From contig CBFDTI010000001.1 in assembly GCA_965612795.1 (NCBI GenBank), positions 5,116-69,115 on the forward strand: a DNA stretch of 64,000 nucleotides, given 5' to 3'. Each line of letters starts with the position of its first letter. Within the stretch, counting starts at the first letter, position 1. The notes beneath the pieces were generated by a model. It worked only from the letters and a program-made list of their open reading frames with translations, made no database searches and was not told the origin of the DNA. Positions 11,816 to 18,987 of the stretch are shown piece after piece. The position numbers and the translations under genes were made by a program. This DNA is from an uncultured bacterium (GTDB lineage: Bacteria; Hydrothermota; UBA3073; NMUJ01).

Positions 11816-12708
11816 TCCGCATTCCACGTTTATCAATCCTCCTACCGCTATTATTACCTATCTGCCTTTACACCACTTCCTTCCACAGCATTTACGGTGA
11901 TTACGAATGGCTACCCTCTCCACCACCTTCTATCTCCTTAAGGCGTACCTTACATTCACACGTAGGGTTCGACATCACCCTGGTGACTGCAAAACAATCC
12001 CGTTACTCCGCAAACGATATCTCCGCTCGCATGACCTCACTTAGCTTACTCTTACCCATCCGCTATTCGTTATCCCTCTGGGGTGACCTCACCATGTTAC
12101 AAGATGCCACCTACTACGCACTCAGTGAACCCCACGAAATAGCTGGCGAACCCTACCATTACGAGCTCACCGGTAGTGGGTCCACCTATCGTGCCACACT
12201 TACACCTGTATTCCACTTATCTAAGCTCTCGTTCGGGTTAGGGCTCGTCCATTACTTTGGTAGGCTCGAAGAGCGCTGGTTACTGGATTTCGACAACCTC
12301 ACCGATCGTGTCGATACCTTCTCCACGTATGTTTCATCCTGGTCACCTGTATTGCTACTAAACGAGTCATATACTCCACTAAACCTACGTACTCTTATCA
12401 CCAACACCGAACTAATTCTATCCATAACCTTTCCACGGCTACCATTCGTTCCACGTATTCAGTTCAACTGGTATTCACCCTACTACTCCATATCGGCCGG
12501 CTTTACCTCTCACAACTCTGCCATTGACCTCATTTACACCCATTACGGTACAGTAACCTCAACCACCCTAAAGCTTGCCCATCCTTTTGGCTTTAAGGAG
12601 TTCACCCTAACCCCTAACCTTTCCGTCGTGTATCGTACCAGCCCTAACATACAAGAGTGGGGTTGCATAATTTCAGTAACCTTCGATGGCACCGAGCGTA
12701 TCGATTAA
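11812..12708 (+). CDS. Hypothetical secreted/outer-membrane protein
   Basis: Signal peptide MIRIPRLSILLPLLLPICLYT; beta-strand-rich alternating pattern; start overlaps stop of upstream lipoprotein gene (ATGA). Confidence 0.5.
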   Translation: MIRIPRLSILLPLLLPICLYTTSFHSIYGDYEWLPSPPPSISLRRTLHSHVGFDITLVTAKQSRYSANDISARMTSLSLLLPIRYSLSLWGDLTMLQDATYYALSEPHEIAGEPYHYELTGSGSTYRATLTPVFHLSKLSFGLGLVHYFGRLEERWLLDFDNLTDRVDTFSTYVSSWSPVLLLNESYTPLNLRTLITNTELILSITFPRLPFVPRIQFNWYSPYYSISAGFTSHNSAIDLIYTHYGTVTSTTLKLAHPFGFKEFTLTPNLSVVYRTSPNIQEWGCIISVTFDGTERID

Positions 12709-13612: not shown

Positions 13613-16014
13613 GTTTCAACCTTCTCCTTTTGTTTGACCCGTTTACGCATCAACAGCGCCTCTTTGATCGCATCTATTGCACGGTCGACAAACTTAAACT
13701 CTATCCCCTGTTTTATATAGTCCGGTATTTTTTCAAGGTCGTTCTTATTCCACTTCGGTAGTATCACTTTCTTTATCCCACTATTCTTAGCTGCTAATAT
13801 CTTCTCACGTATACCACCGACTGGTAACACCTTACCTCGTAACGTAATCTCACCCGTCATCGCCACCTCAGGATTTACCGGTACCTCCGTAAACAGTGAC
13901 GCAAGTGCTGTCGCTATCGCCACACCCGCCGATGGTCCATCCTTCGGTATAGCACCACCCGGTATATGTATGTGCACATCGTATTTTTCCAACTCTTCCG
14001 GGTTCACCCCCAGTTCCGCCAGTATCGACCTCACGTAAGAGTATGCTGCTTTCGCCGATTCCTGTAGCACCTCACCCAACCTACCCGTAAGTATAAGGTT
14101 TTTCTTACCCGGTAGCTTCACCGCCTCTATGAACATAATCTCACCCCCCGTAGGGGTCCAGCTCAGCCCCGTCACCACACCGATTTCGGGCTTCTTACCT
14201 TTGACTTCAGCAAAGTATTTTGGTGGCCCCAAAAACTTCACCAGATTCGTCTTCGTTATCTTCGTCACCCCTTTCTTACCCGCAGCCACCTCCTTGGCCA
14301 CCTTCCTACAACAAGCGGCAATCGCACGCTCAAGGTCACGCACCCCCGCCTCACGCGTATACTCCGTAATTATCCTCATAATCGCATCCTTCGTAAACTG
14401 TATATGCTTTTCGGTTAACCCATGTTCCTTCATCTGCTTCGGTATAATATGGCGGCTCGCTATTTCAAGCTTCTCCTGTGGCACATACCCCGGTATATGT
14501 ATGATCTCCATGCGGTCGAGCAACGCCGGTGGTATCGTATACGTGACGTTAGCTGTGGTGATAAACATCACCTTTGACAGATCAAACGGCACCTCCAGGT
14601 AGTGATCACTAAAGCTATCGTTCTGCTCCGGATCGAGTGCCTCCAGCAACGCAGCTGCTGGATCACCCCTGAAATCCGCCCCTATCTTATCGATTTCGTC
14701 CAACATAAATACTGGGTTCTTAACCCCCGCTTTCCTGATACCCTGTATTATCCTACCGGGTAACGCCCCTATATACGTACGTCTATGTCCACGTATCTCA
14801 GCTTCATCCCTTATACCACCCAGCGAGAACCTGACAAACTTCCTACCCAACGCACGTGCTATGGATTTACCCAATGACGTCTTACCTACGCCTGGCGGGC
14901 CCACGAAACATAGTATTGGCCCCTTCATGTCCTGTTTGACCTTCCTAACCGCAAGGAACTCGAGTATCCTTTCTTTAACCTCATCCAGATCGTAATGATC
15001 CTCATCCAATATCTTCTTAGCGCGCTCAATATCGAGGTTATCCTCAGTTTCCTTATCCCATGGCAACGCTATCAACCAATCTATATACGTACGCGATACC
15101 TCATACCCCGGCATACCTGGTTGTAGACGTTCGAGCTTCTCCAGCTCCATAAATGCCACCTTTTTCGCCTCCTCCGGCATACCTGACGCTTCTATCTTTT
15201 TGCGTAGCTCTTCGACTTCCGATACTCCTGCCTCACCCAGCTCCTTCTTTATCGCCTGCAACTGTTGACGTAACAGGTACTCACGTTGCGTCTTACCCAG
15301 CTCAGTCTGCACCTGATCCCTTATCTTTTCCGCCAACTGTATGATGTTAAGCTCTTGACTCAATATCGGTAATAACCTACCTATACGTTCCTTGGGGTCT
15401 ATTGCATTCAATATCTCCAGCCGTGCCTGATACTTCAACGAAGGCAAGTTTGACGCTATGAAATCGGCCAACTTACCCGGATCTTCTATCTTCTCCACCA
15501 CTATTGCCAGTTCATCCGGTATCTCATCCGTATGCTGTACGATCTCCCTCACAAACTTATGCACATTCTTGATGGTAGCCTGCACCTGTAGGTCCTGCAT
15601 ATCTACCGGTGGTTCGTGTATCACCTCAATCTTCACCTTGTGGAACGGCTTCGTCTGTGTCACTTTCACCACCTTAGCCCTTACGATACCCTGCAGTAAC
15701 AACCTTATCTCACCCATCGGCCCCGTAGCCATCTTCATGATACCTGACACCACACCTATCGGGTTGTACAGCTCGGTTATCGGTACATCTTCTTTCTTCT
15801 CCTTGATTGGTACCACCAAAACCAACCTATGTGCACCCAACACCGAACGTATACCTTCTTTTTCAGCCTCATCCACCACCACATGTGGCATCACCGTGTA
15901 GGGGAACGGCACCTTATCACTTACCACCAATACCGGTAGTTCATCCGGTATCTCTATTTTTGTATCTTTGGGTTCCATCTCTTCAGGTTTTGGTTGCTTT
16001 TTGCCAAACATCAT
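13594..16014 (-). CDS. lon: ATP-dependent Lon protease
   Basis: Lon N-domain, Walker A GPPGVGKTSLGKSIA, sensor/arginine finger region, catalytic PKDGPSAGVAIATAL. Confidence 0.95.
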   Translation of the reverse strand: MMFGKKQPKPEEMEPKDTKIEIPDELPVLVVSDKVPFPYTVMPHVVVDEAEKEGIRSVLGAHRLVLVVPIKEKKEDVPITELYNPIGVVSGIMKMATGPMGEIRLLLQGIVRAKVVKVTQTKPFHKVKIEVIHEPPVDMQDLQVQATIKNVHKFVREIVQHTDEIPDELAIVVEKIEDPGKLADFIASNLPSLKYQARLEILNAIDPKERIGRLLPILSQELNIIQLAEKIRDQVQTELGKTQREYLLRQQLQAIKKELGEAGVSEVEELRKKIEASGMPEEAKKVAFMELEKLERLQPGMPGYEVSRTYIDWLIALPWDKETEDNLDIERAKKILDEDHYDLDEVKERILEFLAVRKVKQDMKGPILCFVGPPGVGKTSLGKSIARALGRKFVRFSLGGIRDEAEIRGHRRTYIGALPGRIIQGIRKAGVKNPVFMLDEIDKIGADFRGDPAAALLEALDPEQNDSFSDHYLEVPFDLSKVMFITTANVTYTIPPALLDRMEIIHIPGYVPQEKLEIASRHIIPKQMKEHGLTEKHIQFTKDAIMRIITEYTREAGVRDLERAIAACCRKVAKEVAAGKKGVTKITKTNLVKFLGPPKYFAEVKGKKPEIGVVTGLSWTPTGGEIMFIEAVKLPGKKNLILTGRLGEVLQESAKAAYSYVRSILAELGVNPEELEKYDVHIHIPGGAIPKDGPSAGVAIATALASLFTEVPVNPEVAMTGEITLRGKVLPVGGIREKILAAKNSGIKKVILPKWNKNDLEKIPDYIKQGIEFKFVDRAIDAIKEALLMRKRVKQKEKVETYSPKE

Positions 16015-16424
16015 TCAATCACCAAAATACGTTTTTCTTTCTCTTTTCTATGGAGTTTAAGTGAGAACAACCCATGATAGTTATCCACCTCAATACGCTT
16101 CTCATCCACCGCAAACGGTAGCTTTATTTTCCTTTCGAACGGCCCAAAATTTATCTCCTCCGCCAAACATTCAGCCCCCTTGATGCTTTCAGGTGGGAAC
16201 GTCTCCCCTTTTATTATAAGTGTATCCCTATCTTCATCCAGATAGAAATGTACATCTTCCGTACGTACACCACCAAGGTTCACCAGCACTGTCACCACAT
16301 CACCCTTCACGTACATGCATACTGGTGGGAACACCTCCACAAACATCGAATCTGGTGTACTCAACATAGGCATCCTTCTTGCCCACCATACTGCCATAAA
16401 TTTACGATATTCAATATCGGCCAT
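16011..16424 (-). CDS. Small heat-shock protein, Hsp20/alpha-crystallin family
   Basis: Alpha-crystallin domain pattern (VLVNLGGVRTEDVHFYLDEDRDTLIIKGE ... FERKIKLPFAVDEKRIEVDNYHGLFSLKL); stop overlaps lon start (operon). Confidence 0.65.
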   Translation of the reverse strand: MADIEYRKFMAVWWARRMPMLSTPDSMFVEVFPPVCMYVKGDVVTVLVNLGGVRTEDVHFYLDEDRDTLIIKGETFPPESIKGAECLAEEINFGPFERKIKLPFAVDEKRIEVDNYHGLFSLKLHRKEKEKRILVIE

Positions 16425-16663
16425 CTTTTAAAGATATATGTCACCTTCTACGGTCAACCATATTGTGTATAAAAACGCCATACTCGATACTTTAAATACT
16501 GCTAAATAACTATCACGTGAGTGATGCCTCTCACCACAATCGTGAAATTTACCTACAAATTTTTAAACAAATAAGGAAATAAAGGTTTATTCTTTTAATA
16601 GGCATTCAGAGATATTGGCAACCGATGTTGTGAGGGATACCTTTAATGAAGGAGGTGCATGGT

Positions 16664-16777
16664 ATGGAGTGTATCTTTACAAAAGTTGTATGTGGCAAAT
16701 TATGGGAGCAATCAAATCGTAGTCTTGCAATAGAAGGGAGATGCAAAATTTTAGTAAAAAGGAGGTGTTATGTTTAA
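16664..16777 (+). CDS. Putative 37-aa Cys-containing micro-protein (MECIFTKVVCGKLWEQSNRSLAIEGRCKILVKRRCYV)
   Basis: Strong SD AAGGAGGTG 8 nt upstream of ATG 16664; stop TAA overlaps ATG of the next gene (ATGTTTAA). An alternative 24-aa frame from ATG 16659 exists. Below ORF-track size cut-off. Confidence 0.2.
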   Translation: MECIFTKVVCGKLWEQSNRSLAIEGRCKILVKRRCYV

Positions 16778-17375
16778 ATTGAGGGTATTATTGGTGATAA
16801 CTCTATACGTTGTGGCTATTACGATACCCACGTGTATGAATGGCCATAAGATGATATTGAATGAAGTAACCACTCCACATAATTTATGGCAACAGTATCA
16901 CTCTTTCAGATTAAACCCCTATGCACAAGTGACAGAGACGAGAATGTTTACTACTTGTATGAGCACGACAGAGACGGGAAGAAGTAAAAAGAATAACTTT
17001 ATCAAAACCGCTGCCATATATGGGTTAGAATGGCTTGGTACCACAGTTGTTACAGGAGTGTGGTCGTTTATAGCGATGATGGGATACTGGCCCCCTGGTG
17101 CTGATATCTCGGATCTCCCTCCGCCAGAAATTATGTTTCGTACTTTCTGTTATTTATATGTAGGAGGTAACACTCTACTAGGGGGCTTCTCTACATGGGG
17201 TATCGGTAAACTCCTGAAGCAACGTGGGTCCTTATGGGGGGCGTGTCTTGGAGCATGCATAGGTAGTGTGACAGGTCTATTTGCAGGGCGTTATATTATG
17301 GGCATGGGTGGGGTATGTCTTTATTTTTTGGCCCCTTCAATAGGGGCAGTAATAGGGTACAATTGGGGGAGGTAG
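16770..17375 (+). CDS. Hypothetical membrane protein with C-terminal glycine-zipper segment
   Basis: SD AAAAAGGAGGTG; N-terminal hydrophobic segment; C-terminus GACLGACIGSVTGLFAGRYIMGMGGVCLYFLAPSIGAVIGYNWGR (GxxxG repeats). Coding strand is G/T-rich, unlike neighbouring + strand genes. Confidence 0.5.
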   Translation: MFKLRVLLVITLYVVAITIPTCMNGHKMILNEVTTPHNLWQQYHSFRLNPYAQVTETRMFTTCMSTTETGRSKKNNFIKTAAIYGLEWLGTTVVTGVWSFIAMMGYWPPGADISDLPPPEIMFRTFCYLYVGGNTLLGGFSTWGIGKLLKQRGSLWGACLGACIGSVTGLFAGRYIMGMGGVCLYFLAPSIGAVIGYNWGR

Positions 17376-17377
17376 AG

Positions 17378-17506
17378 ATGATCAGCTCGAAAATGAACTT
17401 CATAGTAGCAATCCACGATATAACCGATGGCATAAAAAGATATGCAAATGGTACTTCATCACCATGGAGACACCCAACTACCGTGCAACGAAGAAGTTCA
17501 GCGTGA
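17378..17506 (+). CDS. Putative small protein (MISSKMNFIVAIHDITDGIKRYANGTSSPWRHPTTVQRRSSA)
   Basis: GGGGGAGG SD 5 nt upstream of ATG 17378, immediately after the stop of the membrane-protein gene. Confidence 0.2.
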   Translation: MISSKMNFIVAIHDITDGIKRYANGTSSPWRHPTTVQRRSSA

Positions 17507-17595
17507 TTCGATAATACATTATCACAAGATACGTCACGGTGCGATAGTTACTTGTCAACCCCATCCATAGCTTTACTTTTACACCTCATACCAAC

Positions 17596-18987
17596 ATGCA
17601 GATACTTAAGGTTAAACTCCAGAATGTCTCATCCTACCATGCACAGAATGATACACGCATACGTTATGTGTTGGAATTCATTTCCACCTTCTACGGTATA
17701 AGGGTAGAACCTTCACCCGAAGGCATTACCCTACCTACACCGCAATTTGATAGCTGGACACCCAATAACATACGTATCACTTACATCGATACTATACCCG
17801 TACTTTACACTGATCAACAACCCACCCACATAATCTCCACCACCGGCCATGTAGGGTTCGACCTCATAGGTGCAACGTTTTTCTTGTTATCACTATCTGA
17901 GGAGCTGAAATTCCACACCCCACGGTTCCGCTCATCACTCTCTTTACTACACAAGTTTGACCTACTCCATACACCTCTTATCAACTTATGGCTCATACAG
18001 ATAGAGCATCACCTACGTACCAAAGGTTACCACCTACCACCCCGCTGGCCTACCGGCAAATTCGCAATCGTACTAACCCATGACATCGATCGTCTCGGTA
18101 CGGTTGAGTTCACCCTTCACGGTAAACTACGTCGCATCATGTTACTCAACACCATGAAGCATCTCACCCTCCGCACATTATTACGTAGTGTAGGCGCACC
18201 CCTCCATTACCTACTGTGTAAGGGGCTCAGAATGTACTCACCCACCATCGTAAACCCTGACATCGGGGATTGGATTACTTGCGAATCCCAATACGGGTGG
18301 CGGTCGACTTTCTTCATTTTCCCCGATAAAGTCTACCCACGAGATCCATCCGACCCCATCTACACCTATCACGATAAAACGCTATTCCATGGCAAACCCA
18401 TAAAGCTTATCGATTTATTGCGAGAACTCAAACCCACCCACGATATAGGTTTACACGCCAGCCGCCACAGTTATAATAACTTCAACACCTTACGCATGGA
18501 AAGACGACGCCTTTCGCAACTCATAGGCAATATAGATGCCGTTCGTCACCACTACATAAGCTTCGACGCGTATCAATCACCCGCCACACTTGAAGCTGCT
18601 GGTTTCACCATAGATTCGAGCCTCGGTTGGCCTGATAATGTTGGCTTCCGTGCCGCTGTAGCATATCCGTTCAAGCTATGGGATCACACCCGTATGCGTT
18701 CCACAAACGTATGGGAGGTACCACTCACATTACAGGAATCCATAGCCATCGTACATTTAGGGCTTGACACACCCGCTAAATTATGGTCGCTAATCGATAA
18801 ACTCATACATGAAGCCTCCCGTAGCACCGGTATGCTTACATTGTTGTTCCATCCCGCCGCTATCGATATGCCGTTCGATACCTTCAAATTCTATCGCGAG
18901 TTACTTACCCGCTTATCGCACGAAGATGCATGGATCACCACCATCTCAGGTATTAAAGATTGGCTATCACAGCGTACACCACAATGA
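17596..18987 (+). CDS. Putative polysaccharide deacetylase-like (NodB/CE4-type) protein
   Basis: FAIVLTHDIDRLG and GLHASRHSYNNF motifs resemble NodB motif 1/2; weak assignment from memory. Confidence 0.45.
   Translation: MQILKVKLQNVSSYHAQNDTRIRYVLEFISTFYGIRVEPSPEGITLPTPQFDSWTPNNIRITYIDTIPVLYTDQQPTHIISTTGHVGFDLIGATFFLLSLSEELKFHTPRFRSSLSLLHKFDLLHTPLINLWLIQIEHHLRTKGYHLPPRWPTGKFAIVLTHDIDRLGTVEFTLHGKLRRIMLLNTMKHLTLRTLLRSVGAPLHYLLCKGLRMYSPTIVNPDIGDWITCESQYGWRSTFFIFPDKVYPRDPSDPIYTYHDKTLFHGKPIKLIDLLRELKPTHDIGLHASRHSYNNFNTLRMERRRLSQLIGNIDAVRHHYISFDAYQSPATLEAAGFTIDSSLGWPDNVGFRAAVAYPFKLWDHTRMRSTNVWEVPLTLQESIAIVHLGLDTPAKLWSLIDKLIHEASRSTGMLTLLFHPAAIDMPFDTFKFYRELLTRLSHEDAWITTISGIKDWLSQRTPQ

Follow-up and report, generated by a model that had tools for sequence, protein, structure and literature searches.

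A 1,081-bp islet in the genome of an uncultured bacterium is, judging from comparison with its relatives, a strain-variable insertion in a WOR-3 bacterium, and it is very probably the eroded remnant of a second copy of a ∼7.6-kb operon for secreted enzymes, in which only one gene has stayed intact. The islet occupies positions 16463 through 17543 of the stretch analyzed here (64,000 nucleotides of contig CBFDTI010000001.1, assembly GCA_965612795.1; herein the window), between hsp20 and a gene for a DUF7033/VimE-like deacetylase. An earlier reading of the DNA letters (herein the original prediction) had singled out the region for its inverted base composition, a Cys-containing micro-open reading frame (ORF), and a 201-residue (aa) glycine-zipper membrane protein, and had proposed either a small peptide or immunity-like module or a recent inversion or insertion. 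The features that would mark a strain-variable inserted islet were all found: an empty site in a relative, a composition unlike that of the host, and an identifiable source. The odd composition, the double ribosome-binding sites, and the Cys-rich micro-ORF would all follow from one ordinary process, the insertion of an operon copy and its decay by deletion.

The Islet Is Missing from a Close Relative

Species-representative genomes queried with the DUF7033 protein yielded "candidate division WOR-3 bacterium 4484_18" (herein L008), whose flanking sequences are 95% identical to the window and join at window positions 16462/17544, with the islet absent. Window positions 12000 through 16462 align with L008 5489 through 9951, and 17544 through 20309 align with L008 9949 through 12714; the 1,081 bp between them (16463 through 17543) are missing, and the junction carries ATA microhomology only, which gives its position a 3-bp ambiguity. 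The hsp20/DUF7033 spacer of L008 is a divergent one of 87 bp.

Contigs with homologs 70 to 85% identical to the 201-aa protein (L001/L002, L003/L004, and L012) share the arrangement of the window, with lon and hsp20 running leftward and the ∼205-aa gene, the DUF7033 gene, and a glycosyltransferase family 4 (GT4) gene running rightward. The left and right junctions are identical in L001, L003, and L012, where the islet also has the same orientation as in the window. An assembly chimera was rejected because at least four independent assemblies have these junctions in common. We also rejected an insertion sequence or other transposon, including a miniature inverted-repeat transposable element; there are no terminal inverted repeats, there is no duplication beyond the ATA, and the islet holds no transposase ORF or Pfam match. 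The insertion that the original prediction had offered as one alternative is thus borne out by the source operon described below and by L008, a relative at 95% identity in which the site is precisely empty.

Two back-to-back TTGAC (−35-like) motifs of the 87-bp spacer lie on either side of the insertion point (L008 9914 through 10000; window 16450 through 16462 and 17544 through 17560), so the flanking genes may each retain their own promoter. There is no terminator-like site between the 201-aa gene and the deacetylase gene. Promoter and terminator scans found no more sites than in shuffled sequence, and Rfam found no RNA family in the islet.

Islet Fragments Are Colinear with a Secreted-Enzyme Operon

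Three other homologs of the 201-aa protein (P0003, P0004, and P0005) sit in a different setting, an operon away from hsp20 that is represented by loci L009, L011, L014, and L040. The operon comprises one or more BNR_4/PDIAV-like lipoprotein genes, a 135-aa SH3-like gene, a 353-aa YVTN β-propeller gene, and the ∼205-aa gene; a giant gene follows after 3 bp. In its complete form the giant protein has 1,235 aa in L014 and 1,340 aa in L040; it combines a CehA/McbA-type (PHP) metallohydrolase region, BNR-like repeats, and a type A sorting domain of the type IX secretion system (T9SS), with PF18962 and TIGR04183 matching both the 1,235-aa and the 1,340-aa protein. The window itself encodes SprA.

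The matches between the islet and the operon loci are colinear (Table 1). From these matches, the inserted unit would once have spanned the whole operon (∼7.6 kb). In the window the giant gene is reduced to 18 + 62 + 64 bp: its first six codons (17378 through 17395) are followed by a 158-bp deletion and then by a 62-bp internal piece (17393 through 17454), which a second deletion of ∼3.7 kb joins to the last 64 bp of the gene.

Operon copies counted as "intact" also contain broken genes. In these copies the first BNR lipoprotein gene is interrupted (74 + 139 aa; L014 345 through 1081), and in L014 the giant gene (3836 through 7865) is split into 87 + 1,235 aa, compared with the whole 1,340 aa in L040. 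These interruptions are either real decay or assembly error.

The Islet Stands Out from the Composition of the Window

At a resolution of 1 kb, the segment 16501 through 17500 is the only one whose + strand GC skew is clearly positive (+0.19, unsurpassed in the 64-kb window), and its neighbors lie at −0.33 and −0.32. At 200-bp resolution the sign of the skew switches near 16500 through 16650 and again near 17500, with a peak of +0.54 at 16600 through 16799. For the insert as a whole the skew is +0.173 (z = 3.2), measured against 608 other 1,081-bp segments of the window with a mean of −0.274 (SD 0.139) and a maximum of +0.098; the local background at 10 through 25 kb has a mean of −0.283 (SD 0.067). 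We called 55 long, nonoverlapping ORFs in the window and computed skew by codon position on the + strand. The third-position (GC3) skew is +0.31 in the 201-aa gene and between −0.03 and −0.76 in the other 54 ORFs, whichever their orientation, including those flanking the islet (hsp20, −0.58; the DUF7033 gene, −0.44).

Recalculation therefore upheld the skew opposite to that of the window, and uniform skew was not seen. The finer wording of the original prediction stood in part. The islet is G-rich on the + strand as claimed, but not T-rich overall (AT skew +0.03), the T-rich part being limited to ∼17000 through 17350; it is indeed more AT-rich, but modestly so (GC 0.407 compared with 0.454, SD 0.030); and elsewhere in the window the + strand is rich in C, without being consistently rich in A. 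Unskewed to slightly G-rich would be a more fitting description of the islet than a reflection of the background.

Shared Junctions and Differing Deletions in the History of the Islet

All islet versions share the left junction, the right junction, and the two deletions in the giant gene, of which the 158-bp deletion is present in L001, L003, L012, and L013 and the ∼3.7-kb deletion junction in L001, L003, and L012. The upstream parts differ. The window and L001 keep the equivalent of L009 1430 through 1472, followed by the sequence from 3000 on; in L003 the BNR lipoprotein gene survives as its first 358 bp (L009 249 through 606, 92% identity), followed by the sequence from 3089 on; L012, whose contig begins inside the islet, resumes at L009 3089; and L013 retains the whole propeller gene together with islet-type downstream sequence. 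Common junctions and giant-gene deletions combined with different upstream deletions point to a single origin followed by independent decay. As a series, the differently deleted islets document on a small scale how gene decay and gene conversion proceed naturally in an uncultured phylum.

In the history that we favor, one operon copy would have inserted, a single time, into the divergent spacer of 87 bp that separates hsp20 from the deacetylase-like gene, and internal deletions would then have stripped nearly everything except the ∼205-aa gene. The operon would likely be a fairly recent arrival from another WOR-3 lineage of ordinary composition, leaving too little time for the islet to drift to the composition of its host, and the surviving gene would have remained under purifying selection while swapping blocks with a full-operon copy.

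Several points weigh against this history. The flanks, in which strain divergence is ∼5%, group the window with L008 and L001 with L003 (left-flank sums of 0.079 for this quartet compared with 0.127 and 0.132; same order on the right), which at face value would imply that L008 lost the remnant or that the empty allele was moved by homologous recombination. No contig places the full operon and the islet in the same genome, although both are present in a single metagenome sample (L011 and L012). At the ends of the insert, 151 bp on the left and 28 bp on the right match no source. Finally, the foreign origin of the operon is read from composition, no donor was identified, and the named members of the protein family all come from WOR-3, so a resident origin with an older inversion is conceivable.

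The order of events could also be reversed, with the operon standing first at the hsp20/deacetylase site, the copy beside the arginase and spermidine genes (L040) being secondary, and L008 having deleted the remnant. We consider this unlikely, while acknowledging that the flank tree joins the empty L008 with the islet-bearing window and that both copies are compositional outliers, neither of them obviously older. What counts against it is that the gap in L008 matches, within 179 bp of unassigned ends, both the limits of operon homology and the change in composition, a coincidence if the deletion had been random; moreover, all islet versions are degraded, whereas the operon copies are intact. 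Because the gap coincides with these limits, we regard the L008 sequence as the probable uninterrupted target site, possibly re-acquired.

The Surviving Gene Encodes a Member of an Unannotated Membrane Protein Family

The 201-aa protein consists of an N-terminal signal/anchor helix, a ∼50-aa linker, and a four-helix glycine-zipper membrane domain; the glycine-zipper C terminus described in the original prediction is present. Eight cluster representatives among 5.8 billion proteins are homologous to it. Full-length homologs are 70 to 85% identical, two more at 46% identity cover 72% of the query, and P0130 is identical to the window protein. A profile search extended the family to 104 representatives at E ≤ 1e-3, and its named members are all WOR-3. 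The conserved C-terminal domain of ∼130 aa carries the motifs K..Y.LE..G, Y..GN.LL, G(K)LL.Q.GS.W, GAGIGS, and P.LGAVIGYN. An AlphaFold model built from a 9-sequence alignment reached a predicted local distance difference test score (pLDDT) of 54; with a 40-sequence alignment, a confident four-helix model was obtained (pLDDT >90 over residues 73 through 197).

There is no informative match to the protein in Pfam, NCBIfam, PHROGs, or PADLOC. Searching the PDB by sequence profile likewise yielded no meaningful match, and no structure or family match indicates its function. The Pfam glycine-zipper families PF05433, PF13488, and PF13441 score 8.0 to 9.3 bits (E of 1.3 to 3.6), below their cutoffs of 24.2 to 28.9. 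The gene belongs to an unannotated family of four-helix membrane proteins, defined here. It is found at the same position in several strains, but as an accessory, strain-variable gene of that family and not as a housekeeping gene.

The ORF is intact in all alleles seen. The ratio of nonsynonymous to synonymous substitution rates (dN/dS) is 0.26 to 0.85 between islet copies and 0.55 to 0.61 between operon copies, compared with 0.02 to 0.18 for the flanking lon, hsp20, and DUF7033 genes; the surviving gene appears to evolve faster than its flanks and yet still to be under purifying selection. It is also a mosaic. Alignment columns 295 through 402 (the Pro-rich loop between helices 1 and 2) occur in two types that differ at ∼50% of sites; here the window has 0/102 differences from L001, and the L003 islet copy is nearest to the operon copy of L040 (5/105). 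Over columns 403 through 528 the window is identical to L013 (0/126) and has 15 to 23 differences from all others, and over columns 1 through 150 it is closest to the operon copy of L040 (4/150). More than half of the informative site pairs (3,395 of 6,328) fail the four-gamete test. These failures and the mosaic blocks indicate that islet and operon copies exchange sequence blocks, either by gene conversion, if the copies share a genome, or otherwise by recombination between strains.

The family gene adjoins a large gene in L009, L040, and the 46%-identical L006. At 19 broader-family loci, found with a 13-sequence subset of the alignment, it is usually followed directly by a large ORF, which carries PKD, Metallophos, or fn3 domains in seven of the eight loci tested. 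The 201-aa product may, tentatively, be a small integral-membrane partner of the large secreted hydrolase encoded downstream; the position of the surviving gene, consistently just upstream of large secreted hydrolases, offers a concrete pairing to test. More distant WOR-3 loci carry tandem and split copies: L007 (113 through 1530) has three tandem paralogs (154, 77, and 204 aa) ahead of the large gene, and in L015 (6929 through 7645) the family gene is split (131 + 92 aa in L015/L016). Such copies suggest frequent duplication and decay of the family.

A more speculative proposal, which we hold to be doubtful, is that the ∼205-aa proteins form a WOR-3-specific class of membrane partners or immunity-like factors for large T9SS-secreted metallohydrolases, and that the islet is a selected orphan copy, kept for protection or as a reservoir of loop variants for the operon via gene conversion. 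Slightly less probable again is an orphan immunity-like gene, whose ∼205-aa product would guard against the giant secreted hydrolase or a related weapon of competitors, with loops that track effector variants. Every independently deleted islet does keep this gene intact while the giant gene is destroyed, the loop segments are hypervariable and reassorted, paralogs stand in tandem before the large gene in L007, and dN/dS is below 1. However, the giant protein has no recognized toxin domain and resembles a degradative T9SS enzyme (PHP/CehA and BNR; elsewhere Metallophos, PKD, and fn3). Nor is co-variation evident, the giant gene being ∼96% identical between operon variants while the membrane-protein genes differ more (two operon types sampled). 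A PADLOC or immunity-family match is also absent, and a location upstream of the large gene is an unusual order. No positive evidence was found for the immunity-like role that the original prediction had raised for this protein.

Origin of the Unusual Composition

On the 29-kb contig L040, the full operon has a skew of ∼+0.1 and a GC content of 0.42, whereas the genes right after it on the same strand have GC3 skews of −0.43 to −0.63 and a GC content of 0.45 to 0.49. Adjacent housekeeping genes encode an arginase-family protein, spermidine synthase, PvlArgDC, V-ATPase D, FabG, FabD, and others, and the flanks show the same extreme skew as the window. An operon that is unskewed within skewed DNA, and in the same orientation to the bias, implies that the composition of the islet was inherited and did not come about by a flip in place. 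In loci of the wider family, the GC content is 0.35 to 0.51 (mostly 0.38 to 0.42) and the coding-strand skew mostly ∼+0.1, and they match the composition of the operon better than the host does. On composition only, we favor an operon that came in fairly recently from another WOR-3 lineage over inverted resident DNA, because inversion would not lower the GC content.

The divergence of the flanks represents far too little change to erase a gap in GC3 skew of ∼0.9 (+0.31 compared with ∼−0.6), and the persistence of the anomaly calls for no special mechanism. The GC3 skews of islet and operon copies (+0.31 to −0.10) lie within sampling error of one another (∼0.11 per gene), and recombination between the copies makes the direction of substitutions an unreliable guide to any drift toward the host.

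The recent inversion that the original prediction had considered, a local flip of resident DNA relative to the replication or mutation strand bias, is very improbable. It would account for positive skew within a strongly negative background and for a gene whose coding strand is G-rich like that of other-strand genes of this genome. Against this, L008 has a clean empty site and not reversed DNA; the segment copies, in the original order but with many deletions, an operon from another locus, which has equal composition in the same orientation to the bias; flipping would not alter a GC content of 0.41 to 0.42 relative to the 0.45 to 0.49 of the host; and flanking inverted repeats were not found. 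A composition dictated by the Gly/Trp/Val-rich membrane protein, and not by history, can be given next to no credence: the protein is indeed rich in Gly (GGN codons) and Trp, with a first-position skew of +0.32, but the third-position skew of its gene is likewise positive where those of both neighbor genes are negative, the largest G excess (+0.54) lies in the noncoding remnant region 16600 through 16799, and the other + strand genes of the window stay GC3-negative regardless of product; the third-position and noncoding values already contradict this reading.

The Micro-ORFs Are Probable Scraps of Deleted Genes

The original prediction listed two near-consensus Shine–Dalgarno sites in a row, a 37-aa ORF with four Cys (or a 24-aa alternative) that overlaps the 201-aa ORF, and a 43-aa ORF with its own site. 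All are present, except that the last has 42 aa from its ATG at 17378 and its Shine–Dalgarno site is that of the giant gene. The two AAGGAGGTG-type sites lie at ∼16649 through 16657 and at 16759 through 16767, and the 37-aa ORF overlaps the start of the 201-aa ORF through ATGTTTAA.

Comparison with the operon accounts for each of these elements. The 24-aa alternative starts at 16659 and reads MVWSVSLQKLYVANYGSNQIVVLQ up to its stop; it corresponds to the last 24 codons of the propeller gene, whose product in L009 ends in SMVWSVSLQKLYVANYGSNQIMVLQ before the stop. The first Shine–Dalgarno site, with its ATG, comes from the 135-aa gene, whose ATGG was fused by a deletion to the tail of the propeller gene, and the second site is the ordinary ribosome-binding site of the ∼205-aa gene. 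The bases of the 37-aa ORF lie inside the propeller gene in the operon, and its frame is shifted in L001 by a 1-nt deletion; the region is deleted in L003 and L012. The 42-aa ORF opens as the giant gene does, with its Shine–Dalgarno site, ATG, and six initial codons (MI(S/R)SKM), and then runs across two deletion junctions. The micro-ORFs have no family match in Pfam, NCBIfam, PHROGs, or PADLOC.

A functional small-peptide module, in which the 37-aa (or 24-aa) and 42-aa ORFs would encode membrane-active or modified peptides working with the 201-aa protein, is therefore hardly tenable: good Shine–Dalgarno-like sites precede the ORFs, and the four-Cys ORF does overlap the start of the 201-aa gene, but all three ORFs are explained as remnants of larger genes, no precursor frame is conserved in the nearest relatives, the same bases belong to the propeller gene in the operon, no match that would suggest a peptide and immunity module was found in the islet, and no maturation or export genes lie nearby. 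The micro-ORFs are most simply read as scraps of deleted neighbor genes and should not be annotated as peptide genes.

Table 1. Features of the islet and its flanks, followed by the matches between islet and operon loci
Feature	Position in window	Strand	Evidence
hsp20 gene, left flank, outside insert	16011–16424	−	Pfam HSP20, E 1e-7; 94 to 95% identical in L001, L003, and L008
Original intergenic DNA, hsp20 side	16425–16462		Present in islet-free L008
Insert, 1,081 bp	16463–17543	+	Absent in L008; skew +0.173, GC 0.407
AT-rich left insert end, 151 bp	16463–16613		No match to operon loci; 16463–16535 common to L003
Remnant: spacer, Shine–Dalgarno site, and ATG of 135-aa SH3-like gene	16614–16658	+	L009 1430–1472, 82%
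Propeller-gene remnant: last 24 codons and stop	16659–16733	+	L009 3000–3076
37-aa four-Cys ORF	16664–16777	+	Out-of-frame reading of propeller remnant and intergenic spacer
Intact 201-aa gene	16770–17375	+	Full-length homologs 70 to 85% identical; own Shine–Dalgarno site 16759–16767
5′ remnant of giant T9SS-cargo gene	17378–17454	+	L009 3720–3801 (95%), L009 3959–4022 (92%)
Last 64 bp of giant gene, including stop	17452–17515	+	L040 7994–8057 (89%); L014 7797–7846 (98%)
Right insert end, 28 bp	17516–17543		No match in any locus
Original intergenic DNA, deacetylase side	17544–17595		Present in L008
DUF7033/VimE-like deacetylase gene, right flank, outside insert	17596–18987	+	Pfam DUF7033
Colinear match	16614–16657		L009 1430–1472, 82% identity
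Colinear match	16657–17276		L009 3000–3622, 86% identity
Colinear match	17314–17395		L009 3720–3801, 95% identity
Colinear match	17393–17454		L009 3959–4022, 92% identity
Colinear match	17452–17515		L040 7994–8057 (last 64 bp of giant gene with stop), 89% identity
Colinear match	17452–17501		L014 7797–7846, 98% identity

Strand Bias and Other Features of the Window

The extreme strand bias of the host is a more unusual feature of the window than the islet. It is independent of gene orientation; from 1 through 64000 the + strand skew is ∼−0.1 to −0.7 in nearly every 1-kb segment, and GC3 skew reaches −0.76. The bias is strongest at 1 through 3 kb, fades toward 57 through 61 kb, comes near zero only at ∼58 through 61 kb, and is also found in L001, L003, L008, and L040. 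Literature searches on GC skew in WOR-3 and on extreme bacterial GC skew returned nothing relevant. In a genome biased to this extent, patches that lack skew reveal DNA of recent arrival with great sensitivity.

Substitutions were polarized for window positions 12100 through 16462 and 17544 through 19750 by comparison with L001, L003, and L008. Changes specific to the window lineage on the + strand comprise 41 C>T and 15 T>C, and 22 A>G and 7 G>A, whereas L001 and L003 are near balance; the counts show a bias that is apparently now relaxing in the window and L008 lineages. The flanking genes of the window also have weaker GC3 skew than those of L001 and L003 (lon, −0.59 compared with −0.68 and −0.70).

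Two long + strand ORFs (193 through 1722 and 1963 through 2940) lie in the most skewed part of the window, have first-position skews of −0.80 and −0.85, and lack a Pfam match; they may be spurious, or their products may be very unusual proteins. At the other extreme, the + strand block 57389 through 61377, with genes for a GNAT acetyltransferase, urocanase, and UDP-glucose dehydrogenase, has nearly zero skew and may be another late arrival, acquired once the bias was in place. A local dip at 42 through 43 kb is due to the gene for a class A bacterial RNase P RNA (42191 through 42531, + strand; 255 bits).

The region 20490 through 21115 contains a tRNA gene (20802 through 20874, − strand) amid three or four partial tRNA copies (repeats of 31 to 66 nt). 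The region also has a 100-aa ORF (20541 through 20843, − strand), and the L004 counterpart of this ORF carries a GIY-YIG domain; the region looks like the product of repeated insertion or duplication at a tRNA. The deacetylase gene at the right flank of the islet also matches NCBIfam deacetylase_VimE (E 3e-24), below the curated cutoff.

Comparison with Known Systems

A partial operon copy that decays by deletion is a kind of event already known; what is new is this instance and the unannotated membrane protein family that it preserves. The islet invites comparison with amelioration, the concept of Lawrence and Ochman, which reportedly concerns acquired or duplicated DNA that has not yet drifted to the composition of its host. 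Like such DNA, the islet differs from the host in GC content and skew, is present or absent between close strains, and decays by deletion. It differs in that the host background here is an extreme strand bias and not a difference in GC content, and in that the operon of which the islet is a second, partial copy is an outlier too, with no mobility genes, tRNA target, or repeats.

The source operon resembles the T9SS cargo operons of bacteria of the Fibrobacteres–Chlorobi–Bacteroidetes (FCB) group, as its 1,340-aa protein carries a C-terminal sorting domain of type A and SprA is encoded in the window. Unlike in those operons, the 201-aa protein resembles no known T9SS component, and the cargo gene persists in the window as short pieces only. 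With glycine-zipper proteins (PF05433, the Rick_17kDa_Anti/SlyB-type hairpin of two transmembrane helices, PF13488, and PF13441) the family shares GxxxG/A repeats in a pair of short hydrophobic C-terminal helices, and many of its members have an N-terminal signal-like segment with a conserved Cys. Its domain, however, is a four-helix unit of ∼130 aa ending in GAVIGYN(L/W), and a SlyB-like periplasmic domain is lacking.

Orphan immunity genes are known from polymorphic toxin and bacteriocin loci. As with these, a small membrane-protein gene has been kept and diversified after loss of the adjacent gene for a large secreted protein, and tandem paralogs occur in a relative; unlike with these, no toxin domain was found in the partner, co-variation is not seen in the two operon types sampled, the small gene comes first, and no known immunity family matches. 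A likeness may also be drawn with pseudogenized segmental duplicates that retain one gene, in which a colinear multigene copy is likewise cut by internal deletions and scraps of gene ends persist as short ORFs with ribosome-binding sites. The islet departs from that pattern in its retained gene, which swaps blocks with the intact copy, has the same dN/dS, and is not simply heading to loss.

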